A stretch of DNA of 64,000 bases from Bacteroidales bacterium (lineage in GTDB: Bacteria; Bacteroidota; Bacteroidia; Bacteroidales; UBA12077), in contig JBFXEQ010000012.1 of NCBI GenBank assembly GCA_050179935.1, positions 13,828 through 77,827 of the forward strand. Reading direction: 5' to 3'. The notes below the pieces were generated by a model. It ran no database searches and had not been told where the DNA came from. It was given only the letters and a program-made list of their open reading frames with translations. Of the stretch, positions 10,551 through 34,515 are shown piece by piece. The translations under genes were made by a program, and so were the position numbers. The stretch's first letter is position 1, and every line of letters begins with the position of its first letter.

Positions 10551-10570
10551 ATAACTTGGTAATTGAAATA

Positions 10571-10603
10571 AAAAAAGAGGCTTTCAAAAAGCCTCTTTTT
10601 TTG
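10571..10603. terminator. Bidirectional intrinsic terminator between convergent genes
   Basis: AAAAAAGAGGCTTTCAAAAAGCCTCTTTTTTT: a 7-bp or longer stem flanked by an A-run and a T-run. Confidence 0.75.
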
Positions 10604-10680
10604 TTTATACACTTCAACAAGCTTAGTGCGACATGTAGATTGTTAGATTGTTATTCATTTCACCTGCCGAACAGGCAACT
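10571..10680 (+). repeat. Copy A of a ~105-nt intergenic repeat (terminator hairpin plus ~75-nt tail)
   Basis: Hand alignment to the reverse complement of 54385-54487 gives an identical stem (AGAGGCT/AGCCTCT). The segment GTTTATACACTTCAACAAGCTTAGTGCGACAT matches GTATTCACATTTCGACAAGCTCATTGTGACAT at 24/32. Overall identity is roughly 70 percent. Confidence 0.65.
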
Positions 10681-10718
10681 TCTGTTATTTTAAGATAAAC
10701 TCATTTTAATGAGAATAA

Positions 10719-13028
10719 TTATTTTTTATGAAAGTCAGTTATGTTATTCGAAATCTTTAGAATCTTGTATATTTCACCCTCAGAGTTTCTAATAGGAGTA
10801 TATGTTTCGGCAAAAATAAACTGTTTACCTTTAATACTTATTTTAGTTGTTTCTTTTCGCACCTTTCCTGTTCTTAAATCCTTCCAGAATTTATCATAAT
10901 CGTCTTGTTGCTGTTCGGTAAATTCAATATTTCCAGAGTGATGTGTACCTAGAACTTCGTTTTTGTTCATTCCGATTAGCGAAAGGTAATTATCGTTTAC
11001 ATTTTGAATATATCCCTCGGTGTCGTATTCAATAACATAACTTGAAGTATTTAACGCTTCAATTAATCCTTCCATTTCAGCACTTTTACGGGCTGATTCT
11101 TCTTGTGTGGCTTGTAGTTCTTCCATGTTCTGACGTACCTCTTCTTCCTGAGCTGCCATTTCCTCTGCTTGCTGCTGCGATCTTTCAAGCAGTTCGGTAG
11201 TTCTGATACTAATTCGTACCGCAGATAATGTAGATGCAATACTTTCTGCTAATTTCTCAACAAATTCTATCTCATGCTTTTTAAAAACATTAAACGAGGC
11301 TAATTCGAGAACTCCAAGTACTGTTTCTTCTAATTTTAGGGGAACAATCAATAGGCAATTTGGATTCGCGCCACCAAGACCCGATGTTATTTCGATATAA
11401 TCCTGTGGCAGAGAGGTCATAAAAACAGTTTTTTTCTCAACCGCACATGTACCAACAAGTCCTTCGCCTAAATCGATGGTTTTTTGTAAAAATTTACGTC
11501 GGTCAAAAGCAAATGCAGAAAGCATCGATAAAAATACATGTTCCTTATCGTCGTCGTTTAAAATAAATACACCCCCTTGATTTGCATTGAGATAATTAAC
11601 TAGGTTCATAATTATTTCAGTAGCAAGGGTTTCAAGATTATCGTTGTTTTGTCTTAGAATGTCAGCAAATTTTGCAAGTCCTTCGTTTGCCCATTGACGA
11701 TTGTTATCTTCCATTTTTCTCTTTTCTTCCTCTTCACGGGCTTTTACAAGACTATTTCTCATCTCAATCAGCGATTTTCCAAGTACATCGTCATCGCTCA
11801 ATAATACAAATTCGTGATTTAAATTTCCTTGTCCAATATTGTTGGCAAAATCAACTTTATTATTCAATCCTTCGATTGATTTATTTAGGGCTAAGGCCAT
11901 TTCCTCAATTTCATCTCCCGAGGAGATTTCAATTCGCATTTTTTCATCAATATGCCCTTTGGCAACAAGGTTTAAGAGTTTTGTAATTTTGGTTATTGGA
12001 TTAGTAATATTTCTTCCGATAAAATATATTACAATAATCATTATGAGTATTCCTGCAATACCAACAAGAATAGATATTCTAAAGCTTCTATTGGCTTTTG
12101 TCATTATTTCGGCTACAGGCACTGCAACAGCTATTGACCATGGGTTTATGGTATGTTTTACCAGAATGGGTGCATAGGAATAATACGTTGGAACACCATT
12201 AGCATCATTGCTTATATAGTTAAAACTCTCGCCTTTTGTAATCTTTTCTGAAACCTTAAACTGCTTCTCGTCTTGTGGAAATACTTCTTCGAATTTTTGG
12301 TTGAGCAAATCAGTTTGGTGATGACCTGCAATTACCGATTTATTTGAAAGCAAAAAGGCATAACTACCATTAAATGGTTTGATGCTTTCAATTATTTTTT
12401 GAAACTCCTCTAAGGTTATATCTATTGCAACTACACCAGCAAATTGATTGTTTACAAGCATTGGTGATCTTAAGCTAAACATAAGATAGGATGCTGTTTT
12501 ATCGGCTGTAACAATATCGAAATAAGGCTCAGCAACAGATGGCACTAATAAAGATTTGGTTATAGTGTATAATGGAGGATCACCTGTCATACTTCTATAT
12601 TCTATGCTGTTTTTAATAGCTCCATTATCTCTCCAGTATGTATGGCAAATTCGTCCATAGGGTTTGTCATAGTTTTTATCAATAAAACCAAGCTCCCAGC
12701 TATCCCAAAGACCATAAATATGTGGATTATTTTTGAAAACATTAAAATAGATTTTATGCACTAAATCCTGCCACTCATCTTTCGGAAACTCTTTATAAAG
12801 ATAAAATGCATCGGTTAGTGTTTTAACAACCATCATATCGGCATCGAGCTGTGCTTTTATTTGTTTAGCGGCTTCCTGAACATGGGTGTTGGTTAGTTCT
12901 GTTGCATCGTTGTAAGCAATTTTACGAGCATTTAAACTGATATAACCAACAGCTATAATGTAAATTATGATAGTTGATGAGATAATAAACAGTTGTATCT
13001 TTTGTTGTATTTTAAGTTTGAGCTTCAT
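10719..13028 (-). CDS. Membrane sensor protein: TM, dCache-like periplasmic domain, TM, HAMP, GAF, Q/E-rich coiled coil, C-terminal PAS; no recognisable output domain
   Basis: 769 aa. TM helices lie near residues 10-32 and 315-337. A HAMP-like segment follows (NITNPITKITKLLNLVAKGHID...GDEIEEMALALN). The GAF-like region includes NANQGGVFILNDDD...GLVGTCAVEKKTVFMT. The PAS resembles MCP-associated PAS domains (HHSG...FWKDLRTGK...). It is the third of three tandem paralogs. Confidence 0.8.
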   Translation of the reverse strand: MKLKLKIQQKIQLFIISSTIIIYIIAVGYISLNARKIAYNDATELTNTHVQEAAKQIKAQLDADMMVVKTLTDAFYLYKEFPKDEWQDLVHKIYFNVFKNNPHIYGLWDSWELGFIDKNYDKPYGRICHTYWRDNGAIKNSIEYRSMTGDPPLYTITKSLLVPSVAEPYFDIVTADKTASYLMFSLRSPMLVNNQFAGVVAIDITLEEFQKIIESIKPFNGSYAFLLSNKSVIAGHHQTDLLNQKFEEVFPQDEKQFKVSEKITKGESFNYISNDANGVPTYYSYAPILVKHTINPWSIAVAVPVAEIMTKANRSFRISILVGIAGILIMIIVIYFIGRNITNPITKITKLLNLVAKGHIDEKMRIEISSGDEIEEMALALNKSIEGLNNKVDFANNIGQGNLNHEFVLLSDDDVLGKSLIEMRNSLVKAREEEEKRKMEDNNRQWANEGLAKFADILRQNNDNLETLATEIIMNLVNYLNANQGGVFILNDDDKEHVFLSMLSAFAFDRRKFLQKTIDLGEGLVGTCAVEKKTVFMTSLPQDYIEITSGLGGANPNCLLIVPLKLEETVLGVLELASFNVFKKHEIEFVEKLAESIASTLSAVRISIRTTELLERSQQQAEEMAAQEEEVRQNMEELQATQEESARKSAEMEGLIEALNTSSYVIEYDTEGYIQNVNDNYLSLIGMNKNEVLGTHHSGNIEFTEQQQDDYDKFWKDLRTGKVRKETTKISIKGKQFIFAETYTPIRNSEGEIYKILKISNNITDFHKK

Positions 13029-13055
13029 AGCTTTTATAATTTACTTTTACGATTC

Positions 13056-15362
13056 TTATTTAAAATCAGATAACTCATGAGAAATCTTTAAGATTTTTGT
13101 AACAGATCCGTTTTCATCAAACAAAGGCGAATAGATTTCGAAAAAGTGATATGTCTTTCCGTTCACGGTGGCCCTCGTTCTTTCTTTACGCGTTTTTCCA
13201 AGTCTTAAATCGGTCCAGAATTTATTGTACTCCGTTTTTTGCTGATCATCAAACTCCATTTTATCAGCATGATGAACGCCAATAATATCCGACCTTTTCA
13301 TATTTAAGAGGTTCAGATAATTATCATTTGCTTTAGTAATATATCCATCTAAATCATATTCGATAACATAGCTCGATTGGTCGAGTGCATGAATTAAGCT
13401 TTCCATTTCGGCTCCTTTTCGGGCTGCTTCTTCTTGGGTAGCTTGCAGTTCTTCCATATTTTGACGCATCTCCTCTTCCTGAGCAGCCATTTCTTCTGAT
13501 TGCTGCTGGAATTTCTCTAAAAGCTCATTGGTTTTAATGTTTATTTGAACCGATGAAAGTGTAGATGCAATATTTTGTCCCACTTTTTCGACAAAATCAA
13601 TCTGGTAATCTTCAAATTTTTTAAAGGAGGCTATTTCGATAACTCCATAAATTTTGTCTTCCATATTCAATGGTACAATAAGCAATGAATCGGGATTTGC
13701 TCCTCCCAGCCCAGAGGTTATTGAAATATAATCCTGTGGAATATCCGTCATGTAAATTGTTTCTCTTTCGATCGCGCATGTTCCCACAATTCCATCTCCA
13801 AGCTCTATAGTACGCTCAACAAATTTCTTAGAATCGTATGCAAAAGCCGAAATTAAATTAAGAAACTGGTGGTTTTTATCGTCATCGTTTAGCAAAAACA
13901 ATCCTCCCTGATTAGCATTAAGATAATAAACCAAATTTTTAATAATCTCATTCGATAATTTTTCTAAATCATTATTATTCTGCCTTAAAATATCAGCAAA
14001 TTTGGCTAATCCTTCATTTGTCCATCTGCGTTTTTCATCCTCTGTTTTTCGTTTTTCCTCTTCAGCACGGGCCTGAGTTAAGCTATTACGCATATTTATA
14101 AGGGCGATCCCTAATTCATCTTCATCACTAACAAGTTTAAAGTCATGATCGAGGTTTCCAAGTCCAATCTGATTTGCAAAGTCGGTTTTTTTGTTAAGTT
14201 CTATTATCGAAGTATTTAATGCTTTCGACATTTCCTCTATTTCATCGCCTGTATTAATATTAAATGCCATTTTAACACTGGTTTTTCCTTTAGCAAGAAG
14301 GTTAAGAAACTCGGTTATCTTCTGAATCGGATCAGAAATATTTTTAGTTATAAAATAAATAATTAATCCTAGAATTATTATTCCGCAGATACCAACCAAA
14401 ATCGAAATCATAAAATTTCGATCGGCCATAGCCATAATAGAATTGGTTGGAACGGACAAACCAATATACCAGGGAGTATTTGTTCGTCCGATTTTAATGG
14501 GAGCAAATGCTACAAAATGGGTTGAGTTTGCTTCATCTTTTGCAATAATTGAAAACTGTTCATCTTTTTCAAATGCATTTAACAAATCGAATTTTTCACC
14601 AGTTTTTAAAGTAAATTCAGCTGGTTGATTTAATAATTCAGTTTTAGGATGTCCTGCATATTTAGCTTCCTGGCTTAATAAAAATGCATACGAGCCTTCA
14701 AACTGTTTAAGCTTGATTTTTTCCACCATATCCTGAAATTTTTCAAGGATTAGATCTACTCCAACCATTCCATGATATTGATTATCAACGATAATTGGTG
14801 ACACAAGGCTTGTCATCAATTTAGTGTCTTCAAGTTCCTCGGTATAAACATCAAAATAAATGGGTAGTACTAATTCTTTTGCATGTTGTTTTATGTAGGC
14901 ATATACAGCTGGATCGCCATCAAGGCTTCTGATATCCTGTTTAAAGTGCACTACGCCATTAATGCGTGAGTAAACATTTGCAACTCTCCCGGTTGGTTTA
15001 GTCCAATTTTCGTCAAATTTATTTAGCTCCCAACTATCCCAGAGCTTATAAAACTCTGAGTTATCGCGATAAACCTTGTCGTACATTTTGTTAAACAACG
15101 GATCCCAAGTTTGTCTTGGCATGGTATTATAAATAGAAAATGCTTTTGCAAGAGTTCTTACTGTTGCAAAATACTCATTCATGTCTGATTGAATCTGAAA
15201 TGCATATTTTTCAACGTATGTATTTACAATCTCTACTGAATCATTATAAGCTGCTTTTTTTGCGTTTACACTGATATAACCAATTGCTATAACATAAATA
15301 GCAACCGAAGCAGTTATCAGATATAATTGCATTTTGTTTCTTAAATTGAGCTTAATCTTCAT
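13056..15362 (-). CDS. Membrane sensor protein, Cache-HAMP-GAF-coiled coil-PAS, no output domain (paralog 2)
   Basis: 768 aa, colinear with 10719-13028 and 15437-17731. It starts 27 nt upstream of the next paralog. Confidence 0.8.
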   Translation of the reverse strand: MKIKLNLRNKMQLYLITASVAIYVIAIGYISVNAKKAAYNDSVEIVNTYVEKYAFQIQSDMNEYFATVRTLAKAFSIYNTMPRQTWDPLFNKMYDKVYRDNSEFYKLWDSWELNKFDENWTKPTGRVANVYSRINGVVHFKQDIRSLDGDPAVYAYIKQHAKELVLPIYFDVYTEELEDTKLMTSLVSPIIVDNQYHGMVGVDLILEKFQDMVEKIKLKQFEGSYAFLLSQEAKYAGHPKTELLNQPAEFTLKTGEKFDLLNAFEKDEQFSIIAKDEANSTHFVAFAPIKIGRTNTPWYIGLSVPTNSIMAMADRNFMISILVGICGIIILGLIIYFITKNISDPIQKITEFLNLLAKGKTSVKMAFNINTGDEIEEMSKALNTSIIELNKKTDFANQIGLGNLDHDFKLVSDEDELGIALINMRNSLTQARAEEEKRKTEDEKRRWTNEGLAKFADILRQNNNDLEKLSNEIIKNLVYYLNANQGGLFLLNDDDKNHQFLNLISAFAYDSKKFVERTIELGDGIVGTCAIERETIYMTDIPQDYISITSGLGGANPDSLLIVPLNMEDKIYGVIEIASFKKFEDYQIDFVEKVGQNIASTLSSVQINIKTNELLEKFQQQSEEMAAQEEEMRQNMEELQATQEEAARKGAEMESLIHALDQSSYVIEYDLDGYITKANDNYLNLLNMKRSDIIGVHHADKMEFDDQQKTEYNKFWTDLRLGKTRKERTRATVNGKTYHFFEIYSPLFDENGSVTKILKISHELSDFK

Positions 15363-15436
15363 ATCTTTTTGTTTTTTTCATTTTCTTATTACTTCAAAAA
15401 TCTGTTATGAAACAAATTAATCCAAAATCTTGCTAA

Positions 15437-17731
15437 CTAAAACAAAATCGGATCAATGGCTAATAAAATTATTTTTTCAATTTCATCATTTACGTAAACC
15501 GGACTAATTGATACAATAAATTCAACTAATTTTCCTGATTTTAATTTAAGTCTCATTTTTTCGTGATGCGCCGATCCTGAATTTACTGATGTCCAGATTT
15601 TATGGAAATTAGTTTTATCTTGCTCTGAAATAAAGGCTGTATTTTTTAATCCTTTAATTTCGTTAACAGAATATTCAAATTTTTGTAAAAACTGATTATT
15701 GGCTAACAAAATATCCCCACTAAACGAAAATTCTGCTTTTAAAAGAAAATGATCAATAGCATCCAACGTACCTTTAAATTCGGCTTCTCGCCGAGCTGAT
15801 TCTTCTTGAGTTGCCTGGAGTTCTTCCATGTTTTGTCTCATTTCTTCCTCTTGTGCAGCCATTTCTTCTGATTGTTGTTGCGACTGCTCTAAAAGCTGTG
15901 ATGTTCGGATATTTATTCTAACCGACTTAAGGGTAGATGCGATACTTTCTGCTACTTTCTCGACAAATTCGATTTCATGTTTCTTAAAATCATTAAAAGA
16001 AGCTAGTTCAATTACACCCAACATATCTTTTTCAATAAGCATAGGTACTAATAACAAGCTGGTGGGATTTGAGCCCCCAAGTCCACTAGTTATTTTTACA
16101 TAATCTTCGGGTATTTCGGTAAGATGAATTGTTTCTTTTTCAACAGCACAAGCACCAACTAATCCCTCTCCAAGTTGAACTTGTTTTTTAATATATTTTT
16201 TACGGTTATATGCAAATGAAGCCAAAAGCTCTAGCATTACATTACTTCGGTCCTGATCATTAATTATAAATATGCCGCCCTGATTTGCATTAAGATAATA
16301 AATCAGGTTTCTGATAATTTCGTTTGCTAAAAGGTCAAGGTTGTTGTTGTTCTGACGAAGTATTTCGGCAAATTTAGCCAGTCCTTCATTTGACCATCTG
16401 CGCTTTTCATCTTCATGATGTCGTTTTTCATCTTCTTCCTCTGCTCTTAAAAGGCTATTTCGCATTTCAATTAATGACCTTCCAAGCACATCATCTTCGC
16501 TTAAAAGAGTAAAATCGGCATTAAGATTACCAGCACCTATATGATTGGCAAATTCAACCTTTTTATTTAAACCTATTATCGACTCATTAAGAGCTTCTGC
16601 CATTTCTTCGATTTCATCCCCCGAATTTAATTTTACCGCCATTTTTTTATCAATATGTCCTTTTGATAATAGATTAAGAAGACTGGTAATTTTTACTAAT
16701 GGATTAGTAATGTTTTTACTAATGATAAATATAATTATAATTAATAAAATAAGACCGAAAACACCTACAATGGCTGAAATCAGAAAATTTTTATTGGCTT
16801 CGGCCATAATTACATTTACCGGAACCGAAATAGCAACAGACCAGGGAGTGCCAGTGTTCCCAATAGTAATTGGCGCAAAGGTTATATAATGATCTTTACC
16901 ATTTGAATCTTGGGTTATAAAATTAACTCTTTCACCCTTGGTTATTTTTTTATTAACCTCCTCAATTTTTTTCTCAGTTGGAAATAACTCTGCAAGAGTT
17001 ATGTTAAGAAATGCCTTATTAGGATGTCCAGCAATTATGCCTTTGTTAGAAACTAAAAAAGCATAACTACCTTCAAAAGGTTTTATTTCTTCTACCATTT
17101 TTTGAAAACGGTCAAGAGTAATATCAATTGCAACAATTCCAACGTATTTACCTCCATCAAGAATGGGAGAGTTAATAGTTGTCATTAAGAATTTTTCAGA
17201 TTTATTTTCTGCAAAAACATCTTCGTATGGTTCCCAAATGGATGGTAAAACATGCTTTTTAATTTCAGCATAAAGAACCGGATCTCCATCCATACTGCGG
17301 TATTCAATATTGTTTTTAATTGATCCTTTATCTCTCCAGTATATTACAACAAATCTTCCGGTTGGTTTTTTATAGGTTGGATCAAAAACCTTTAATTCCC
17401 AGCTATCCCAAATACTATACATAGAAGGTGTAGTTCGGAAAATTTCGCCATACATTGCCGAAACAAGCTTTTGCCATTTATCCATGGGAAATTCTTTATA
17501 AACAACAAATGCTTTAGAGAGAGTATTAACAATATTAAAGTCGGTTTCGAGTTCAACCTTGACTTTTCCGGCTGATTCAAGAACAATATTATTAGTAAGA
17601 TTAATAGCATTTTCGTAGGCCATTTTTCTGGCACTTAAACTAATATAGCCAATGGCTATAATGTAAATAAGAATGGAGGACGTAATAATGAATAGCTGGA
17701 TTTTTTGCTGGATTTTGAGCTTTATTTTCAT
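15437..17731 (-). CDS. Membrane sensor protein, Cache-HAMP-GAF-coiled coil-PAS, no output domain (paralog 1, divergent C-terminal PAS)
   Basis: 764 aa. Its N-terminus MKIKLKIQQKIQLFII is nearly identical to that of 10719-13028. The C-terminal ~110 aa diverge from the other two copies. Confidence 0.8.
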   Translation of the reverse strand: MKIKLKIQQKIQLFIITSSILIYIIAIGYISLSARKMAYENAINLTNNIVLESAGKVKVELETDFNIVNTLSKAFVVYKEFPMDKWQKLVSAMYGEIFRTTPSMYSIWDSWELKVFDPTYKKPTGRFVVIYWRDKGSIKNNIEYRSMDGDPVLYAEIKKHVLPSIWEPYEDVFAENKSEKFLMTTINSPILDGGKYVGIVAIDITLDRFQKMVEEIKPFEGSYAFLVSNKGIIAGHPNKAFLNITLAELFPTEKKIEEVNKKITKGERVNFITQDSNGKDHYITFAPITIGNTGTPWSVAISVPVNVIMAEANKNFLISAIVGVFGLILLIIIIFIISKNITNPLVKITSLLNLLSKGHIDKKMAVKLNSGDEIEEMAEALNESIIGLNKKVEFANHIGAGNLNADFTLLSEDDVLGRSLIEMRNSLLRAEEEDEKRHHEDEKRRWSNEGLAKFAEILRQNNNNLDLLANEIIRNLIYYLNANQGGIFIINDQDRSNVMLELLASFAYNRKKYIKKQVQLGEGLVGACAVEKETIHLTEIPEDYVKITSGLGGSNPTSLLLVPMLIEKDMLGVIELASFNDFKKHEIEFVEKVAESIASTLKSVRINIRTSQLLEQSQQQSEEMAAQEEEMRQNMEELQATQEESARREAEFKGTLDAIDHFLLKAEFSFSGDILLANNQFLQKFEYSVNEIKGLKNTAFISEQDKTNFHKIWTSVNSGSAHHEKMRLKLKSGKLVEFIVSISPVYVNDEIEKIILLAIDPILF

Positions 17732-17896: not shown

Positions 17897-18616
17897 TTAA
17901 TAAATATGGGTTGAATAAGTTTTTAATTCTTTTGATAACTGTTTGGGATTATTGACAAAACGAGCCATTAACTCCCAAAATTTAGGGCCATGATTTTTTT
18001 CAATGGTATGGCATAATTCATGAATTATAATATAATCAACCAAATGATCTGGCAGTCGAATTAAATGAATGTTAAGATTGATATTGTTTTTACCAGAACA
18101 ACTGCCCCAATTGGTTTTATTGTTTTTTAAAAACAACTTATTGTATTTGAAACCATATTTGATTGAAAAAGTTTTTATCCTATCAGGCAAATATTCTTTT
18201 GCTTCAACCTTAATTGCCCAGAGCAGTGATTTTCGAATTAAATCCTGTATATTTTTTTGAGAAACAGAATGTTCTTTTGGATAATTTAGCTCAATTGTGG
18301 TTGGTGTTAATTGGGCAGTAAATTTTTCATTGTTGTGGCTTTTAATAAGCAGAATCCTTTTTCGGGTTTTAAAAACAGTTGTTTCTGAAAAAACGGTTGA
18401 ATTGGTTTCTAGTTTTTTTATTTTCGGCAAGTTTTTTTCTATCCATTCTCTTCTTAGCTCTACAATTCGTTGAGCCTCCCAATAGGACAAAAAAAGTGGC
18501 ATATTTACAGTTATCCCTTTTAAGGGACGAATAGAAATAGTAACAGCTTTTGATCGTTTGTTTTTTTTAAACCTCACCGGGCCAATTCCTTCAACCGGAA
18601 TAATCTTTTCTGTCAT
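17897..18616 (-). CDS. M48-family / YgjP-like (DUF45) zinc metallopeptidase
   Basis: 239 aa. HELCHTIEKNHGPKFWELM is the YgjP-type HExxH...FW motif. Its ATG overlaps the upstream kinase stop (ATGA at 18613-18616). Confidence 0.8.
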   Translation of the reverse strand: MTEKIIPVEGIGPVRFKKNKRSKAVTISIRPLKGITVNMPLFLSYWEAQRIVELRREWIEKNLPKIKKLETNSTVFSETTVFKTRKRILLIKSHNNEKFTAQLTPTTIELNYPKEHSVSQKNIQDLIRKSLLWAIKVEAKEYLPDRIKTFSIKYGFKYNKLFLKNNKTNWGSCSGKNNINLNIHLIRLPDHLVDYIIIHELCHTIEKNHGPKFWELMARFVNNPKQLSKELKTYSTHIY

Positions 18617-21468
18617 TCAGCGACTTTATTTTCAAATACTTCTGATATTTTTTTTAATAATAATCTAATTTCGATGGGTTTAATAAGATAATCATCATAA
18701 CCGAGATTGATTATTTCCTGGCGGTCGCTTTCCATGGCAAATGCGGTTTGTGCAATCACCGGTGTTTTAATGCCTTTGCTTTTAATTAATTTAAGAGCTT
18801 CATTACCATTAAGTACCGGCATTTGTATGTCCATTAAGATTAGATCATAATCGTTATTTTGTTCCAATAAGTCAATTGCCTCCTTACCATCTTTTGCCCA
18901 GTTTACAGTAACATTTGTTTTCTCAAGAACAGCTTCAAGAAATCTGAAGTTTGTTTCGGCATCTTCGGCAATAAGAATTTTTTTATTTTGCCAATTGCTG
19001 AACTGCAAATCCGACTGGTTATGCTCTTCATTCTTTATCTGATTTATTGGATGGTCTTGTGAAATTGAAAAATAAAACGTTGTTCCTATTCCGGTTTCTG
19101 ATTCGAACCACAATTTGCCACCCAGATTCTCGACAAGTTTTTTCGAAATAGATAAACCTAATCCTGTTCCTCCATATTTTCTGGTATCGGTTTCATCAGC
19201 CTGCCTGAAAGGCTTTACCACAGAATCCATTTTTTCCTTAGGAATACCAATACCGGTATCCTTAACATAACAAATAATGTTGGAATCCTGAGTATAATAT
19301 CCAAATTCGATTTTTCCTTTTTCGGTAAACTTCAATGCATTATCGAGCAAATGAGTAAAAATTTGTTTAAACCTTTTTGGATCGGTATTTACTATAAAAT
19401 CTTTATCTGGAACACCTTTTTTGGCAATAAAACGAAGACCTTTTATCTCTTTTGATTTTTTTAACGCTTCAAAACCAACCAACAAGTCGTCTATAATGGT
19501 GTTTATGTTGGTGTTAATTTTATTTATTGAAAGCTGCTCTGCCTCAAGTTTTGAAACATCAATTATATCATCGATAATGATTAACAGATTATTTGCACTT
19601 TTTTCAATAATATTAAGGTACTCATTTTTATCATTTTCTGATAAATTTGGATTTTTTACAAGTGTTGAAAATCCTATAATTGCATTCATTGGTGTTCTTA
19701 TTTCGTGTGACATGTTTGTCAGAAATGCGGTTTTTAATCTATCCGATTCTTCGGCTTTTAGTTTTGCTTCGTTAAGGTTTTGTTCTATAAGTTTTTGGTT
19801 GGTGATATCATGGTAAATTATGTAGGTTCCTAATTTACCCGTAGTATTCATTATTGGGGTAGCTAAGATAGAAACAAATATTTTTCTTCCGTCTTTGCAA
19901 ACCCTCATTGTTTCTAAAGAAACATTAGATCCTTTTTCGGTTCTTAATGCATTTTCTTTTGCTTCGGCTTTAAGTTCTTCCGGAACAATAAAATCATCAA
20001 CGTCCTTATGATGTATCTCTGATTTTGTAAAACCAAACAACCGTGTAAACTCTTTATTTACCCGAATAACATGATTGTTGTTTCCGACTAAAACTATTGC
20101 TTCGGGGGCACTTTCAAACAGACCTTCGAAATATAATTCTTCTTCCATTTTTAGCAACTGCGTTTTTTTCATTTCTCGGATCATGCCATTGGCTGAGCTG
20201 GCTAGAGATTTAAACTCAGAAAAATAAACCCTATTTTCATCAATTAAAATGAAATCGTGAGAAGCTTTTTTAAAAAAACGTAGAAACGAGTCTATGCTAC
20301 TTGTTGCTTTTTTTGAAATGTAAATCGAAAAAACAGTAAATGCAGAAAAAATAATTATCAAAACAATTAGTATAATTATAATATCGGTTTTGATTGATTT
20401 ATAAAGCAATTGCTTATGTTCCGACAGAGTGGTTTCAATCTCATCGGTATAAACACCAGCTCCAACCATCCATTGCCATTCGGGAATACCTTTTACGAAC
20501 GAAATTTTATTTGCAATAACAGAGGAGGTAAGTTTTCGCCACGAATAATAAATAAAATCCCCTTCGGGATTTTTTGCAGCATTTCTTTCCTCCTGAATTA
20601 CTTTTACCCCATTCGGATCTTCGAGCTCCCAAAGATTCCTATTATCTAAGATAAGATTTCCATCTGTAATTAATGCATCACCATCGTAAGTATTTATAAA
20701 AATGTATCCTTCTTTTTCAAACCTGATTTTTGAAACCCTATCTAGCACATTTCTTTGAACGTCTTTTGTAAAATCATAAATATACTCACCGGTACCAATA
20801 TACCAATTGAAAGGGGCAAATAGCTTTACGAAAGAGATTTTTTGATATGTATTGTCTGATAAACCTGGTTTTTTCCAATAACCATAGCAAAACCCTTCAT
20901 CATAAGTTTTCACAGTTAATATCTCATCGCGAATTACATAATTTCCCATATCATCTTGCAGGCTGATAAGGTTTTTTCCCTCATAATCTGTTTTAATGGG
21001 GAAAAGATATTCTATACCACTTAACGATCCAATAAAGTAATAACCCCGTTCGTTGTTAAACCGAATTGGTCTCAATGCATCTATTATAATTTTTTGAATT
21101 TCGCTTACTGACTTCTTGTTTATATTTTCGGAATAAATATTTTGTGCCATACTTATGGCTTCATTTGTGCGGTTACGTAATAAATCTTTTAGATTTTGTT
21201 CAGTATGTATTCGGTTGTAATTAATAAAGTCGATAGCATTTAATGTTTCTTTTTTTACTGATTGTTTTTTCTTTTCAATAAAATCTTGCTGAAGTTTAAC
21301 ACTTTCCTTTTTAAATGCAGTAAACTTTTGATAAATAGAAAAATATCCCAATAAAAGAAATAAAACAACAATTACAATATACGTTTCGACCACCAGTAAA
21401 TTAACCAGTTTACGATTTTTCCCTGACAGAGATGAAAAATACTTTAAAAACGAATTACTAATTTTCAT
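18613..21468 (-). CDS. Hybrid sensor histidine kinase / response regulator with periplasmic double-Cache domain and PAS
   Basis: 951 aa. The periplasmic region between two TMs has Cache motifs (ERGYYFIGS..., EGYIFINTYDGDAL...). It continues with PAS, HisKA (FLTNMSHEIRTPMNAI), HATPase (GGTGLGLSISKKLV) and REC (LILMDIQMPVLNG). Confidence 0.92.
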   Translation of the reverse strand: MKISNSFLKYFSSLSGKNRKLVNLLVVETYIVIVVLFLLLGYFSIYQKFTAFKKESVKLQQDFIEKKKQSVKKETLNAIDFINYNRIHTEQNLKDLLRNRTNEAISMAQNIYSENINKKSVSEIQKIIIDALRPIRFNNERGYYFIGSLSGIEYLFPIKTDYEGKNLISLQDDMGNYVIRDEILTVKTYDEGFCYGYWKKPGLSDNTYQKISFVKLFAPFNWYIGTGEYIYDFTKDVQRNVLDRVSKIRFEKEGYIFINTYDGDALITDGNLILDNRNLWELEDPNGVKVIQEERNAAKNPEGDFIYYSWRKLTSSVIANKISFVKGIPEWQWMVGAGVYTDEIETTLSEHKQLLYKSIKTDIIIILIVLIIIFSAFTVFSIYISKKATSSIDSFLRFFKKASHDFILIDENRVYFSEFKSLASSANGMIREMKKTQLLKMEEELYFEGLFESAPEAIVLVGNNNHVIRVNKEFTRLFGFTKSEIHHKDVDDFIVPEELKAEAKENALRTEKGSNVSLETMRVCKDGRKIFVSILATPIMNTTGKLGTYIIYHDITNQKLIEQNLNEAKLKAEESDRLKTAFLTNMSHEIRTPMNAIIGFSTLVKNPNLSENDKNEYLNIIEKSANNLLIIIDDIIDVSKLEAEQLSINKINTNINTIIDDLLVGFEALKKSKEIKGLRFIAKKGVPDKDFIVNTDPKRFKQIFTHLLDNALKFTEKGKIEFGYYTQDSNIICYVKDTGIGIPKEKMDSVVKPFRQADETDTRKYGGTGLGLSISKKLVENLGGKLWFESETGIGTTFYFSISQDHPINQIKNEEHNQSDLQFSNWQNKKILIAEDAETNFRFLEAVLEKTNVTVNWAKDGKEAIDLLEQNNDYDLILMDIQMPVLNGNEALKLIKSKGIKTPVIAQTAFAMESDRQEIINLGYDDYLIKPIEIRLLLKKISEVFENKVAE

Positions 21469-31227: not shown

Positions 31228-34200
31228 TTAGTTTTGAGAAAAAGCCTGACTTATAGCATGAAGCAGGCTCTCTATTGTTATAGGCTTTGAAATGTAGTTG
31301 TCAAATCCAGCATCGCTACATTGCTTTTCTTCGTTATTATGAACATAAGCCGTTTGCCCTATAATTTTAAGGTTTTTATTGTGCTGTTTTATTATTCGTG
31401 CAGCTTCAAATCCATCCATTACAGGCATTTTAATATCCATCAAAACTAAGTCAATTTGGTCGTTTTGCATACACATTTCAACCGCCTGTTTTCCATCTTT
31501 TGCCCAAATAATTTTAGCTTTTGTAGGAATTAGTGCTTCTTCTATGAAAGTATAATTAATTGGCAGATCTTCGGCAACAAGTACAACTTTGTTTTGCCAG
31601 TTAAAATCAAAATCCTGAGTTTCGTCATCGTTGCTCTTTTCGAACTTGTGTTCGGCAGGTTCTAGTGGAAGTGTAAAGTAGATTGTTGTTCCCTGGTTTG
31701 GAGTTGACTGTGCCCATATTTCTCCGCCAAGATGCTGAATAATTTTTTTAGCTATCGTTAGTCCAATTCCCATGCCTCCATATTCGCGGGTAAATGATTC
31801 ATCGGCCTGTCGGAATAAATCGTAAATATGTTCAAATTTTTCGTGAGCAATTCCAATTCCTGAATCAATTACATAAAACTGAATCGTGTTTTTTTCGATA
31901 ATTGAATAACCAAACTCAACAAATCCTTTTGATGTAAATTTAACTGCATTTTCGATTAGGTTATTCAAAACTTGTCTAAGTCTTCTAACATCTGTCGAAA
32001 TGGTAAATCCTTTTCTTCTAACGCCTTTGTTAACTGACAATCTTATTTCTTTGTTTTCGTCTGCTTCAATTTTATTGTTAAATTCGGTATAAAGCTCTGT
32101 AATTAATTTGTTTACCTGACAATCGGATTTTTTTATTTCGAAACTTCCTGATTGTATTTTCGAAATATCGATTACATCATCAATTATTTTGAGGAGACTA
32201 AAGCCGTTTTCATTAATTAAGTTATTGAGTTTTACACGTTCCTCGAATGCCAGGTCTTCGTCTAATAAAAGATTTGAAAAGCCAATAATAGCATTCATTG
32301 GGGTTCTGATTTCGTGCGAAAGGTTCGATAAAAAGGCAGATTTAAGTCGATCGGCCTCTTCTGCTTTTTCTTTGGCCAGTATTAATTCTTTTTCGTTATG
32401 CTTGCGTTTAGTAATATCCTCAGAAATAAAAACAAAATGGGTAATTTCTCCTTTTTCGTTTTTAACCGGCGAAATAGATGCAAGCTCCCAATATTTTTCT
32501 CCGTTTTTCTTAATATTCTGAAACTCTCCCTGCCAATCTACTCCGGTTATAACGATATCCATTATATCTTGGTAAATGCTTTTTGATAATTCTTCGGATC
32601 TTAAAATACTTATTTCCTTGCCAATTACATCGTTGGTAGAATATCCTGTAATTTGTGTAAAGCTTTGATTAACAATCTCTATTTTGCCTTTTAAATTGGT
32701 AATAATAACGCATGTGGGCGAATGTTGAATAGCATTGGAAAGAATTTTAAGCTGTAGTTCGGTTTTCTTTTTATTAGTAATATCAACCATAACTCCACCA
32801 ATCTGCCATTGGTTATCAGCGTTTCTAAAACGAAACTTATGGGTTAAAAACGAATTTAGATTTCCTGAAAAATCGGGTAACTCTTCTTCTAAGGCTAAAA
32901 TTTCACCAGCAACAACTTTATGATCTTCTTTAATTATTCGGTTAGCATATTTCTCCGAAAATAATTCTTTAGGGAGCTTGCCAATGCTTTTATCAGATAA
33001 TACAGATCTTTTTACATATTTGTTTATGTAAAGCATTTTTCCGTTATCGTCTTTAATAAAAACACCAACAGGAATATTGTCCATAAACAAGGAGAACTGT
33101 TGTTCTGTTCTTTTTAAAGCTTCTTCAATCTCTAACCTTTTTGAAATATCTTTAAAATCTTCAATTATTCCTAAAACCTCACCTGTACTAGCTTTAAAAG
33201 CTACAGAAGTAATAATACCTGGGATTATTAAGCCAGAAGTGTTTTTTTTCTGAATATCCTGTTCAACTCTTTCTTCTCCGTTCATAATTCTTACAAGCGG
33301 ACATTCGGCTGTATGGCAAAATGGACCAGGGAAAACTTCATAACACTTTCTGCCTTCTGCATTTTCTTTACTTATACCCGACATCATGGTAAAGGTTCGA
33401 TTTACACGAAGTATGTTGAAGTTGGTATCAATTAACCTCATGCTATTGCCTGTAGTATTGAAAATTTGATTAAGCTCAGCGTTTGTTTTTATTATTTCTT
33501 TCGATTTTTCTTCCAGTCGCTTATCCAGGTTATCTTGCAGGTTAAACAACTTATGCAGTATAATATTAAACGAAAAATGCAGAATTAATGAAACAGCAAT
33601 TAAAATAAGGATAATTATTAGTAGCGATCTGTAAATAGTAACCTGAAACTGATTTTCGAGCTGGGTAATATCTTTGGCAAATACAATACCAACAAATCCT
33701 TCGGAATGGAATTGGTTTTGAACCTGAACCAAATTAGAAAAATAATATTTATCGTTAAACTTAAACCTTTCTTTTGTAAGCTTATTGTTCTGTATTGATA
33801 TTTTTGATAAAACAGGGCTGTTATAAAGTGTGTGAATTATTAAATCTTTATTTGAGTTTTGATTGGTTGAGTTTTCAAGAAAAAGAGGGGATACAATTTT
33901 TTTATCAAACACAGAAGCTATCTGAACATTAAATTTTTTAGCAATGCTTTCAGCCACTTCGTTTTCACGTAATCCAAACTCAATACAACCAAGGTATTTG
34001 CCATCATAAAACAAGGGTTCAACTATTTTATAATATAATTGAGAATTTAAATATTCAAATCCAGAAGCAGGTTTACTTGTTGCATTAACCTTTGCAACAA
34101 ATGAGCTTGGTGGAGCTGTTTCAACAGAAGCATTTGGACCAATATCCAGAAGTAGAACAGAGAGGTTATCGGGGCCATAAAAATTGATAATAAAATGGAA

Positions 34201-34515
34201 CGGATTTTCAGATTTTAGGACAGAATAGAGAGGTAGTGCTTTTCTGTAAAGTTCGTCAACGTTAATAGTCGCAAATTCTTTCCTTATTTCAGGATTATTA
34301 ACAAAAAATTTTATTTTTTCGCGATATAACGAATTTGTATTATAAAGGAGGTTTTTAATTTCAAGGCATACAATTTCATTATCCTTCTGTATTTGCCAAT
34401 CGCGATATTGTCTTTGATTTTGTATTCCTAGGTAAAAGTACACTGAGCACAAAATAAGCAAAACAGTAACTACAGCAAGAATGGTTTTAGTCTTTAATTT
34501 TTTCTCGAATTCCAT
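31228..34515 (-). CDS. Hybrid sensor histidine kinase / response regulator with periplasmic domain and multiple PAS domains
   Basis: 1095 aa. Two TMs bracket a ~270-aa domain. There are at least three PAS domains, then HisKA (FLSNLSHEIRTPMNAI), HATPase (GGMGIGLTIAKKII) and REC (LVLMDIKMPVMDG). Confidence 0.92.
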   Translation of the reverse strand: MEFEKKLKTKTILAVVTVLLILCSVYFYLGIQNQRQYRDWQIQKDNEIVCLEIKNLLYNTNSLYREKIKFFVNNPEIRKEFATINVDELYRKALPLYSVLKSENPFHFIINFYGPDNLSVLLLDIGPNASVETAPPSSFVAKVNATSKPASGFEYLNSQLYYKIVEPLFYDGKYLGCIEFGLRENEVAESIAKKFNVQIASVFDKKIVSPLFLENSTNQNSNKDLIIHTLYNSPVLSKISIQNNKLTKERFKFNDKYYFSNLVQVQNQFHSEGFVGIVFAKDITQLENQFQVTIYRSLLIIILILIAVSLILHFSFNIILHKLFNLQDNLDKRLEEKSKEIIKTNAELNQIFNTTGNSMRLIDTNFNILRVNRTFTMMSGISKENAEGRKCYEVFPGPFCHTAECPLVRIMNGEERVEQDIQKKNTSGLIIPGIITSVAFKASTGEVLGIIEDFKDISKRLEIEEALKRTEQQFSLFMDNIPVGVFIKDDNGKMLYINKYVKRSVLSDKSIGKLPKELFSEKYANRIIKEDHKVVAGEILALEEELPDFSGNLNSFLTHKFRFRNADNQWQIGGVMVDITNKKKTELQLKILSNAIQHSPTCVIITNLKGKIEIVNQSFTQITGYSTNDVIGKEISILRSEELSKSIYQDIMDIVITGVDWQGEFQNIKKNGEKYWELASISPVKNEKGEITHFVFISEDITKRKHNEKELILAKEKAEEADRLKSAFLSNLSHEIRTPMNAIIGFSNLLLDEDLAFEERVKLNNLINENGFSLLKIIDDVIDISKIQSGSFEIKKSDCQVNKLITELYTEFNNKIEADENKEIRLSVNKGVRRKGFTISTDVRRLRQVLNNLIENAVKFTSKGFVEFGYSIIEKNTIQFYVIDSGIGIAHEKFEHIYDLFRQADESFTREYGGMGIGLTIAKKIIQHLGGEIWAQSTPNQGTTIYFTLPLEPAEHKFEKSNDDETQDFDFNWQNKVVLVAEDLPINYTFIEEALIPTKAKIIWAKDGKQAVEMCMQNDQIDLVLMDIKMPVMDGFEAARIIKQHNKNLKIIGQTAYVHNNEEKQCSDAGFDNYISKPITIESLLHAISQAFSQN

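Follow-up and report, generated by a model that had tools for sequence, protein, structure and literature searches.

Organisation of the Locus

The window analysed, a stretch of 64,000 nucleotides from an uncultured Bacteroidales bacterium, contains three paralogous genes located head-to-tail on the minus strand, which encode proteins of 769, 768 and 764 aa and are separated by gaps of 27 and 74 nt. The open reading frames agree exactly with the coordinates, sizes, gaps and tandem order given in an earlier sequence-only reading of this DNA. The array and its flanks contain the following features:

15437..17731, minus strand: S1, the first paralog (ORF, 764 aa), TM-dCache-TM-HAMP-GAF-QE helix-PAS, PAS type B
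13056..15362, minus strand: S2, the second paralog (ORF, 768 aa), architecture as in S1, PAS type A
10719..13028, minus strand: S3, the third paralog (ORF, 769 aa), architecture as in S1, PAS type A
10570..10602, minus strand: intrinsic terminator closing the array, a 15-bp stem followed by a T-run
17897..18616, minus strand: YgjP-like HExxH metallo-hydrolase (PF01863, E = 1.3e-44)
18613..21468, minus strand: hybrid histidine kinase dCache_2-PAS-HisKA-HATPase_c-REC (Pfam), a candidate partner, variably present

The region 17897–21468 had been described as a hybrid kinase with an M48 peptidase; the kinase was found, and the peptidase is YgjP-like (PF01863) and not strictly M48. The two genes overlap by 4 nt (ATGA, at the YgjP start). 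At the 3′ end, the array is followed by the terminator and a convergent TPR gene, the downstream gap being 168 nt; a kinase remnant was looked for in this gap, and none was found. The terminator and the convergent gene leave no space for a split-off output gene downstream of S3, which is thereby ruled out; from the short gaps, the sequence-only reading had likewise seen no room for a split-off module. The 165-nt gap before S1 contains only near-matches to Bacteroidota-type promoters, judged by eye. No Rfam match to a regulatory RNA was obtained at the locus at E ≤ 0.1, and PADLOC gave no relevant matches for a defence-island reading of YgjP/AlbA_2.

Domain Architecture of the Paralogs

Pfam searches revealed the same succession of domains in S1–S3, namely dCache_1 / MCP-like_PDC_1, HAMP, GAF_2 and a C-terminal PAS_9, the match to which ends 4–8 residues before the stop codon. 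The dCache_1 score is 65.3 bits for S1 (cut-off 45 bits) and lies under the cut-off for S2 and S3. The C-terminal domains are as follows:

10734..11042, minus strand: PAS of S3 (PAS_9, E = 1.6e-9, residues 663–765; five-stranded PAS fold in the model)
13068..13373, minus strand: PAS of S2 (PAS_9, E = 4.6e-7; 50% identity to the S3 PAS)
15464..15721, minus strand: PAS of S1, divergent type B (PAS_9, E = 8.9e-8; 23–25% identity to the S2 and S3 PAS)

The AlphaFold 2 model of S3, calculated as a monomer (pLDDT 81.8, dropping to 54–64 across residues 620–660), contains an N-terminal helix (H7–80) and two β-rich dCache lobes, TM2/HAMP, a GAF domain (465–583), a helix (584–662) and a canonical PAS domain (664–767), with no unassigned globular region. 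The model and the Pfam results uphold the order TM, Cache, TM, HAMP, GAF, coil and PAS, followed by the stop, which had been read from the sequence. The hallmark of dCache_1 sensors, a pair of PDC lobes carried by a long N-terminal helix and enclosed by transmembrane segments, is indicated by the Pfam score of S1 and by the model of S3. Sequence matches to the dCache structures 9heh and 3lib were found at 1e-13, and a Foldseek comparison of the S3 model with dCache ligand-binding domains gave TM-scores of 0.76–0.81 (target-normalised; E = 1e-18 to 1e-13). TM1, the long stalk helix, two PDC lobes, TM2 and HAMP are shared with dCache_1 chemoreceptors and kinases (ligand-binding domains of PctA/B/C, PacA, PctD, TlpQ and McpU; Methanosarcina mazei HK1S), but S1–S3 have no MCP hairpin or kinase core, and their cytoplasmic part is GAF-helix-PAS. 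The identity to solved dCache domains, about 20%, is too low for a ligand to be deduced.

The sequence-only reading had also claimed that the proteins lack an output domain, and the domain searches bear this out. S1–S3 have no Pfam match at E ≤ 1 to HisKA, HATPase_c, GGDEF, EAL, MCPsignal, cyclase (guanylate/adenylate cyclase included), HTH, HD-GYP, SpoIIE or STAS; against NCBIfam, only partial front-end matches were obtained, with none to HisKA/HATPase_c at E ≤ 1. In the same run, the neighbouring kinase scored 1e-16 to 1e-26 for its kinase domains, whereas S1–S3 gave none, and the combination of a HisKA-type domain with HATPase_c that makes a sensor histidine kinase is absent from all three proteins. 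A cryptic output domain in the C-terminal ~110 aa was found neither at E ≤ 1 in Pfam/NCBIfam nor in the structure model. Membership among the MCPs was likewise rejected: there is no signalling hairpin (MCPsignal, PF00015), and the methylation consensus [ASTG][ASTG]xx[EQ][EQ]xx[ASTG][ASTG] has 0 matches in S1–S3, although the QE helix has EE pairs spaced by heptads. Family members carry the JGI name "methyl-accepting chemotaxis protein", which is unjustified on these profile matches, because MCPsignal is not matched and the NCBIfam MCP matches are confined to the TM2/HAMP region (residues about 295–392).

Conservation of the Family and Exchange of the Sensor Domain

Proteins of equal length and architecture are encoded, in 1–5 copies, at 68 loci in species-representative genomes of uncultured Bacteroidales, with ortholog identities of 45–98% and lengths of 764–783 aa. 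All of S1–S3 have the length, domain order and invariant QE motif of this orthogroup, which has no name; all its members come from uncultured organisms, and literature searches using keywords and the literal motif turned up no paper on either of the two. The dN/dS ratio is 0.01–0.07 in every domain, including PAS, at dS of about 0.6–0.7 (S1, 0.03–0.07 versus the L004 ortholog; S2, about 0.02). S1–S3 are intact, widely conserved genes under purifying selection, without enzymatic or DNA-binding output. A reading of the genes as what is left of truncated multi-PAS histidine kinases in decay, to which related modules that sometimes precede a kinase (P0190, P0260) might lead, has a negligible probability: the low dN/dS of all domains and the length kept across the 68 loci rule out a pseudogene or truncated kinase, and the stop codons are clean, followed at the end of the array by the terminator and a gap free of kinase remnants.

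The copies had been described as mosaic, the outer ones being alike at the N-terminus and S2 and S3 alike in the PAS domain, and the identities confirm it. In the periplasmic domain, S1 and S3 are 54% identical versus 41% to S2; in PAS, S2 and S3 are 50% identical versus 23–25% to S1. One segment of S1 is of particular relevance:

16832..17611, minus strand: periplasmic dCache of S1, residues 41–300, a replaced sensor cassette (comparison with paralog p1 of locus L005 and NJ tree)

In comparison with L005 p1, residues 1–40 of S1 are 85–95% identical, residues 41–300 15–60% and residues 301–764 75–100%. The NJ tree places the periplasmic domain of S1 inside the clade of p3-type sensors and its PAS and cytoplasmic part in the p1 clade; the S1 PAS forms a separate orthologous clade. 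The periplasmic sensor domain of S1 has been swapped in, and the borders of the exchange coincide with its TM helices. What varies and can be exchanged in these proteins is the periplasmic sensor; the cytoplasmic transmitter is constant. A fourth paralog type, found in relatives, has no PAS; it keeps the QE motif, and the coil is merely extended.

The QE Heptad Helix and the Wider Superfamily

The most conserved element is a Glu/Gln heptad helix, QQQxEEMAAQEEEMRQNMEELQATQEE, which holds four EE[M/L/S] heptads:

15800..15880, minus strand: QE heptad motif of S1, QQQSEEMAAQEEEMRQNMEELQATQEE (translation; invariant in 49 family members)
13428..13508, minus strand: QE heptad motif of S2 (translation; invariant in 49 family members)
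11097..11177, minus strand: QE heptad motif of S3 (translation; invariant in 49 family members; inside the continuous helix 584–662)

The motif is 87–93% identical between the paralogs versus 54–55% overall, while identity at the third codon positions is only 47–67% and no DNA tract shared exactly between the copies exceeds 14–20 nt. The randomised third positions and the short tracts rule out recent gene conversion among S1–S3, and the conservation of the motif is therefore attributable to selection. In the S3 model, the GAF C-terminal helix, the QE segment and the PAS N-cap make a single continuous helix, the GAF-PAS linker portion of which (584–662) has heptad periodicity and polar core positions, as its sequence shows. 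The S-helix, as described by Anantharaman, Balaji and Aravind, is reportedly a continuous coiled coil of roughly 40 aa or more linking two signalling domains; by inspection, the QE motif does not seem to be the S-helix signature. That the QE helix is invariant might be due to a purely mechanical constraint and not be the mark of a docking site.

The GAF-QE helix-PAS module was found in 4,528 cluster representatives at E ≤ 1e-30. Among the best 150 of them, just two have a kinase core and none a receiver; all 22 relatives scanned with Pfam contain further PAS domains only, plus one hemerythrin. In long relatives, the QE motif repeats before successive PAS domains, and contig truncation is an unlikely cause of their lack of a kinase, the contigs being 8.6–86 kb long with genes called on both sides. 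To be kinase-less is thus the norm among the closest module relatives (148 of the best 150), contrary to the expectation of the sequence-only reading that a HAMP-GAF-coil unit normally precedes a kinase core; homologs are not always fused to kinases, and S1–S3 have no signs of decay. The relatives include Bacteroidota multi-PAS proteins known by database names only ("PAS domain S-box"/GAF), which share the module but mostly contain 2–10 PAS domains in 800–2,500 aa, whereas members of the S1–S3 family have a single PAS or lack it and, unlike those proteins, form tandem arrays whose dCache sensors can be exchanged. S1–S3 belong to a very large class of "input-only" receptors.

Genomic Neighbourhood and Alternative Explanations

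The sequence-only reading suggested signalling in trans to the neighbouring kinase. In the stronger form, S1–S3 would be dedicated co-sensors of the dCache_2 hybrid kinase, modulating it through PAS or coiled-coil heteromerisation. The kinase, YgjP-like gene and array are linked in 21 of the 27 informative multi-copy loci, in an order kept down to about 45% protein identity; all genes lie on the same strand with short gaps, and the kinase carries a cytoplasmic PAS. All linked loci, however, represent one syntenic context, of which MFP, TsaB and ATP synthase are also part, and common descent may therefore be the reason for the linkage. Moreover, the arrays are intact where the kinase is absent (L016, L063, L071), disrupted (L005) or without REC (L030), and no kinase lies adjacent to the array in two two-copy loci or in any of the 16 informative single-copy loci. 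Single-copy members sit among housekeeping genes, and their varied neighbours (GGT, M16 peptidase, 2-oxoglutarate dehydrogenase, RRF/PyrH, TetR, FabH-like, LTXXQ, amidase and GNAT) include no shared candidate for a partner. The kinase has no QE coil, and its PAS is 24% identical to the sensor PAS, no better than that of an unrelated kinase in the window, so no specific PAS match was found; PAS heteromerisation cannot be the general output, since PAS-less paralogs exist. Signalling to this kinase is thus weakened as a proposal, the linkage being confined to one syntenic clade, and the dedicated co-sensor model is unlikely. Output-less accessory membrane proteins that convey a signal to a kinase in trans are known (UhpC for UhpB, YycH/YycI for WalK); the concept is alike, but there is no homology, and S1–S3 are not consistently linked to a kinase in genomes. 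The YgjP-like gene, which precedes multi-copy arrays in both window-type and OEP-flanked contexts, adjoins the array in 24 of the 27 informative multi-copy loci, including kinase-less and deeply diverged ones (32–39% YgjP identity). The sensors might accordingly control, or be processed by, this zinc hydrolase, the protease being the real output in a split BlaR1-like logic. But single-copy members, the two-copy arrays of L054 and L070 and the wider superfamily relatives have no YgjP-like gene, neither a substrate nor a regulator of a protease is encoded in the vicinity, and the synteny of the left flank (TsaB-MFP-OEP) points to a gene order that was inherited; together these make such a protease output highly improbable.

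A bolder proposal concerns the coil. The QE helix, and not PAS, may be the real output, a docking or covalent-modification site for, e.g., orphan CheR/CheB-type enzymes or a shared effector; receptors built as sensor-HAMP-GAF-(QE helix-PAS)n and marked by this site would then constitute a signalling class that is independent of kinases and widespread in Bacteroidota, the arrays with their exchangeable dCache cassettes converging on one pathway. As a whole, this proposal is distinctly unlikely. Its particular version with CheR/CheB-type enzymes, in which MCP-like adaptation or signalling would proceed without CheA, is improbable, although there is something to be said for it: the motif has its four EE[M/L/S] heptads, and the only two kinase-bearing relatives among the best 150 carry the QE motif between PAS domains and are succeeded by REC-GAF-SpoIIE, CheR and a stand-alone CheB; no MCP, CheA or CheW was called in the stretches fetched there. 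Orphan CheR/CheB genes have been described beside multidomain kinases in the genomes of Bacteroidota and of other phyla (PMC5108060). Yet neither enzyme was found in cis, in the 64-kb window or at the 71 family loci, S1–S3 lack the MCP methylation consensus and an MCPsignal match, and the two CheR/CheB clusters share gene order and are probably one independent observation. SpoIIE-type phosphatases lie within 10 kb of some arrays, in inconsistent architectures and positions, and were rejected as candidates.

Discussion

On balance, the reading that is somewhat favoured is that S1–S3 are transmembrane receptors, functional as dimers and devoid of an output domain, which belong to a Bacteroidales family and, beyond it, to a much larger sensor-TM-HAMP-GAF-(QE helix-PAS)n superfamily; with interchangeable input, they would signal via the QE helix and the terminal PAS to a putative partner encoded elsewhere. 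The mechanism proposed here is drawn from anatomy and analogy. A small molecule would bind the periplasmic dCache domain, and the signal would pass via TM2 and HAMP to GAF, where a further, cytoplasmic input may join it; the QE coiled coil and the terminal PAS would then shift in register or packing, a bare coiled coil taking the place of the PAS end in the PAS-less paralog type of relatives. The partner protein, probably not encoded at a fixed neighbouring position, would read the state of the coil and PAS by protein–protein contact. Perhaps the array provides several ligand specificities that feed one shared downstream transmitter.

A similar arrangement is found in bacteriophytochromes with a PAS output, e.g., XccBphP, where PAS9 is the sole output module (PMC8612531) and which is among the Foldseek fold matches of the S3 model, and RpBphP1, whose binding partner is the repressor PpsR2 (PMC6899989). 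Like S1–S3, these proteins have a GAF sensory module, long helices and a C-terminal PAS with no enzymatic output; the phytochromes signal through a change in quaternary structure or partner binding. Unlike S1–S3, which are membrane chemoreceptor-like proteins without a PHY/bilin module, they are soluble and bilin-binding, with a PAS2-GAF-PHY core. The likeness is an analogy and not membership, since that core is absent from S1–S3.

Genome censuses list many "input-only" signalling proteins, and the S1–S3 locus is a clean case under strong selection. The relatives provide natural experiments, in which the kinase is present, absent or broken, PAS is present or absent, and the sensor domains are swapped, while the QE helix motif is nearly invariant and common to thousands of related proteins. 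Finding the partner, or the modification, by which the QE helix and PAS are read would assign a mechanism to a great many Bacteroidota receptors that lack annotation, and database names such as "methyl-accepting chemotaxis protein" would be corrected.

Organization of the sensor genes and the missing output

The three sensor paralogs, numbered S1 to S3 in order of transcription, are separated by gaps of 27 and 74 nt; their positions, strand, sizes and spacing, as described in the sequence-only reading, were exactly reproduced.

Features of the array
15437-17731, minus strand, S1, ORF of 764 aa
13056-15362, minus strand, S2, ORF of 768 aa
10719-13028, minus strand, S3, ORF of 769 aa
10602-10570, terminator with a 15-bp stem, downstream of S3

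Pfam searches assigned to each protein a partial dCache_1 or MCP-like PDC domain, HAMP, GAF_2 (E about 1e-12 to 1e-15) and a C-terminal PAS_9, which ends 4-8 residues short of the stop. No match to HisKA, HATPase_c, GGDEF/EAL, MCPsignal, cyclase, SpoIIE, STAS or HTH was found at E≤1, and NCBIfam gave only sub-threshold matches to kinase or chemoreceptor front ends. AlphaFold2 modelling of S3, using a 49-sequence family alignment (mean pLDDT 81.8), predicted the following architecture.

Predicted elements of S3 (residues)
7-304, long N-terminal helix and two PDC lobes
310-399, TM2 and HAMP helices
415-460, additional long helix
465-583, GAF domain
584-662, single unbroken helix
664-767, five-stranded PAS

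The model leaves no globular region unassigned, so there is no cryptic output domain, and it agrees with the Pfam and NCBIfam searches on the proposed absence of an output domain. A split-off output gene downstream of S3 is ruled out by the terminator and the convergent TPR gene that follow. Tested for membership of the histidine kinase, MCP, c-di-GMP, cyclase and one-component classes, S1-S3 fall into none of them.

Elsewhere in the window, a 763-aa ORF (60727-63018, minus strand) is sensor-sized but unrelated to S1-S3; its product is a PorZ-like type IX secretion component with an N-terminal beta-propeller and a Por secretion tail. A second hybrid histidine kinase (31228-34515, minus strand; dCache_3, several PAS, HisKA, HATPase_c and REC) has no adjacent response regulator identified.

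Conservation and selection

A homology search gave 951 matches, the best 120 of which form two classes, namely proteins of 764-775 aa that share the sensors' Pfam architecture and proteins of 674-703 aa lacking the PAS domain; the named proteins among these 120 are all encoded in metagenome-assembled genomes (MAGs) of Bacteroidales or Marinilabiliales. The relatives are deposited as "GAF domain-containing" or "cache domain-containing" proteins and, at JGI, as "methyl-accepting chemotaxis protein". Scanning one genome per prokaryotic species yielded 203 related stretches; the best 80 gave 68 loci, all from MAGs or single-cell genomes, and the closest relative among them is a biofilm Bacteroidales MAG (97%). 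The labels of the 68 loci are Bacteroidales or Bacteroidota nearly throughout, with other labels on three short contigs. The latter (L038 and L050, labelled Thiohalospira sp., and L023, labelled Izemoplasmatales; 3.4-5.2 kb) carry family members 50-70% identical to Bacteroidales proteins despite the unrelated-phylum labels, which are probably binning errors and not signs of horizontal transfer.

Compared with the closest ortholog set, L004 (dS about 0.4-1.1), every segment of S1-S3, PAS included, shows dN/dS of 0.01-0.07. These values rule out truncated remnants, leaving practically no probability to the notion that S1-S3 are decaying multi-PAS kinases. S1-S3 are intact, selected, membrane-anchored, multi-domain proteins without catalytic or DNA-binding output.

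Exchange of sensor domains

The proposed mosaic relationship of the copies is borne out by segment identities and by comparisons across genomes.

Pairwise identity by segment (%)
Segment, S1-S2, S1-S3, S2-S3
Periplasmic, 41, 54, 41
TM2-HAMP, 58, 65, 61
GAF, 61, 65, 66
Coil, 76, 78, 80
PAS, 25, 23, 50

Across genomes, the PAS domains fall into three clean orthologous clades corresponding to array positions 1, 2 and 3, which the periplasmic domains do not track. Window S1 and the first copies (p1) of L004 and L006 have periplasmic domains that nest among the position-3 sensors; a different branch unites those of L005 p1 and L008 p1, and position-1 sensors of other genomes constitute a deep separate clade. 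Window S1 and L005 p1 are 85-95% identical over residues 1-40, 15-60% over residues 41-300 and 75-100% over residues 301-764; because identity drops in the middle segment only, S1 is a chimera with a replaced periplasmic cassette and breakpoints at the two TM helices. A similar, weaker pattern was seen in L008 p3. Sensors are exchanged on a constant transmitter, the input domain being variable.

The conserved helix between GAF and PAS

The most constrained element of the sensors is the Glu/Gln heptad (QE) helix. Its motif, QQQxEEMAAQEEEMRQNMEELQATQEE, comprises four heptads, each ending in EE[M/L/S], and lies within the continuous GAF-to-PAS helix of the S3 model. The motif core (residues 617-646) is 87-93% identical among S1-S3, versus 54-55% overall. 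Their third codon positions agree at only 47-67%, and the longest DNA tract that a pair of copies shares without mismatch measures 14-20 nt; purifying selection, and not gene conversion, therefore keeps the motif constant. Among 49 family members the motif is invariant or almost so; it is retained in the PAS-less paralogs and recurs in closely similar copies ahead of successive PAS domains in long relatives; within the window it is confined to S1-S3.

A wider superfamily of output-less proteins

A search of 1.84 billion cluster representatives with the GAF-coil-PAS module (S3 residues 430-769) gave 19,059 matches at E≤1e-3, of which 4,528 reach E≤1e-30. Of the 150 best relatives, most measure 800-2,500 aa and carry the module near residues 400-770. 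The core and receiver regions of the two kinases in the window served as probes against all 150, and picked out a kinase core in only two (P0190 and P0260) and a receiver domain in none; the tail after the last detected PAS has a median of 40 aa. A Pfam scan of 22 of them, including those with the longest unexplained tails, revealed varied N-terminal sensors (dCache, Cache_3-Cache_2, PilJ) followed by HAMP, GAF and 2-10 PAS domains, and no catalytic output, with hemerythrin at the end of one. The contigs of the long relatives reach well past the genes. The output-less state is the rule among the closest module relatives, and the earlier expectation that a HAMP-GAF-coiled-coil unit is normally followed by a kinase does not hold for them.

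P0259 (1,054 aa) has a PilJ-HAMP-GAF-PAS-hemerythrin architecture, so both the N-terminal sensor and the C-terminal end are exchangeable across the superfamily. At L075 (1370-11150), a tandem pair of giant GAF-PASxn proteins without output (1,561 and 1,512 aa) precedes a weak SpoIIAA-like (STAS) protein, a hint of a tie to partner-switching modules.

In P0190 and P0260 the QE motif lies between PAS domains, and both kinases are encoded in clusters where REC-GAF-SpoIIE, CheR and stand-alone CheB come after the kinase, in that order, and partner-switching genes of the SiaC and DUF6272 types lie close by.

QE-bearing multi-PAS histidine kinase clusters
L072:7846-15783
L074:2454-11278

These clusters could suggest that the helix is modified or docked by CheR/CheB-type enzymes, and orphan CheR/CheB beside multidomain kinases is a previously noted genomic pattern (PMC5108060). 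However, neither CheR nor CheB occurs in the window or in the 71 family loci, the motif departs from the canonical MCP methylation consensus, and the two clusters, sharing their gene order, are probably one observation, which makes such a role quite improbable. No MCP, CheA or CheW was called in the fetched stretches of the two clusters.

Gene neighbourhoods and candidate partners

The ORFs of every locus were mapped onto window proteins, with unmatched neighbours identified by Pfam; four genomic contexts emerged. Context I, that of the window, comprises an MFP gene (minus), the hybrid kinase, a YgjP-like gene and 3-5 family copies, followed by TPR, AlbA_2 and ATP synthase genes (all minus). 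Many of these relatives have a fourth (sometimes fifth) paralog after the S3 position (e.g., L001:12341-14377 and L016:12340-14451), either full length or PAS-less; the PAS-less form (674-703 aa) has a longer terminal coiled coil. The window has three copies, only 168 nt (10551-10718) separating S3 from the TPR gene. Context II (L057, L063, L071) includes kinase-less arrays of at least two copies that follow the YgjP-like gene; an outer-membrane efflux gene occupies the kinase position, and RRF and PyrH come after the array. The five-copy arrays of L041 and L045 have the same downstream genes and begin at a contig end. In context III, one or two copies lie between GGT/M16 peptidase and 2-oxoglutarate dehydrogenase genes. 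The copies of context IV are single, about 780 aa long and flanked by TetR/FabH-like genes and by LTXXQ/amidase genes; they are often a second family locus in genomes also having context I.

In five loci (L013:13102-14493, L024:14299-15690, L030:14740-16131, L017 and L026), all with arrays ending in a PAS-less paralog, the gene directly 3' of the array, on the same strand, encodes a 463-aa protein that combines 4Fe-4S domains with the C-terminal domain of the [FeFe]-hydrogenase large subunit; this gene is absent from the window. In L029 an extra 658-aa ORF, weakly similar to the kinase at 25-30% identity, separates the YgjP-like gene (2113-2829) from the array.

Upstream content, loci with enough upstream sequence
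Multi-copy, YgjP-like and kinase: 21
Multi-copy, YgjP-like only: 3
Multi-copy, kinase, no adjacent YgjP-like: 1
Multi-copy, neither: 2
Single-copy, neither: 16/16

Upstream of the window array, the stop codon of the dCache_2-PAS-HisKA-HATPase-REC hybrid kinase overlaps the start codon of the YgjP-like HExxH protein (PF01863) by 4 nt (ATGA, 18613-18616). The sequence-only reading proposed this kinase as the partner of S1-S3 in trans. Co-location stands, the kinase lying upstream with the YgjP-like gene in 21 multi-copy loci, but it is a property of one syntenic clade and dispensable there, as follows from the upstream counts and from three loci with intact arrays: the kinase is missing altogether in L016 (4408-4547), changes frame without about 30 residues inside HisKA in L005 (1591-4352) and lacks the receiver domain in L030 (1714-4131). 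The L005 disruption, in a locus with S2 and S3 copies that share about 90% identity with their window counterparts, could be an assembly error; the kinase split in L007 is a scaffold gap. Moreover, the closest module relatives are almost all kinase-less, the PAS domains of kinase and sensors are only generically similar, and none of the 16 single-copy loci with enough upstream sequence has an adjacent kinase. Partnership with this kinase is thus unlikely, and there is evidence that it is not obligatory. The YgjP-like gene is a steadier companion of the arrays, being present in three kinase-less multi-copy loci, yet is not universal to the family, as all 16 single-copy loci lack it; coupling of this hydrolase to the sensors seems very doubtful. 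No partner gene is universally linked to the family loci.

Proposed mode of action and significance

On balance, we lean towards a relay from ligand to QE helix and PAS, read by a partner encoded elsewhere. A ligand would bind the dCache domain, and the signal would pass through TM2 and HAMP to GAF. It would go on to shift the register of the QE coiled coil and the placing of the terminal PAS, or of the bare coil where the PAS is lacking, and the partner would read this state by protein contact. The front end is a standard dCache chemoreceptor or kinase sensor; the closest structural neighbours of the sensor domain are the chemoreceptor dCache ligand-binding domains of MkcA, PacA, PctD, TlpQ and McpU. 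Several of these bind amines, which, at about 20% identity to the solved domains, is only a hint that amines may be ligands of S1-S3. The back end works most like that of kinase-less phytochromes, which have a terminal PAS9 module driven by a sensory core that includes a GAF domain; examples are XccBphP (PMC8612531), which is among the fold matches, and RpBphP1, which binds the repressor PpsR2 (PMC6899989). The likeness is one of analogy, not membership.

The component domains are already known, and the proteins are in databases under generic names. New are a defined Bacteroidales family with tandem arrays, the cassette exchange of its sensor domain, its PAS-less sister form, an invariant QE helix common to a very large, almost entirely kinase-less superfamily, and the evidence against the neighbouring kinase as an obligatory partner. 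Input-only signalling proteins are a recognised yet unexplained category, and the S1-S3 family is a good entry point to how output-less receptors signal.
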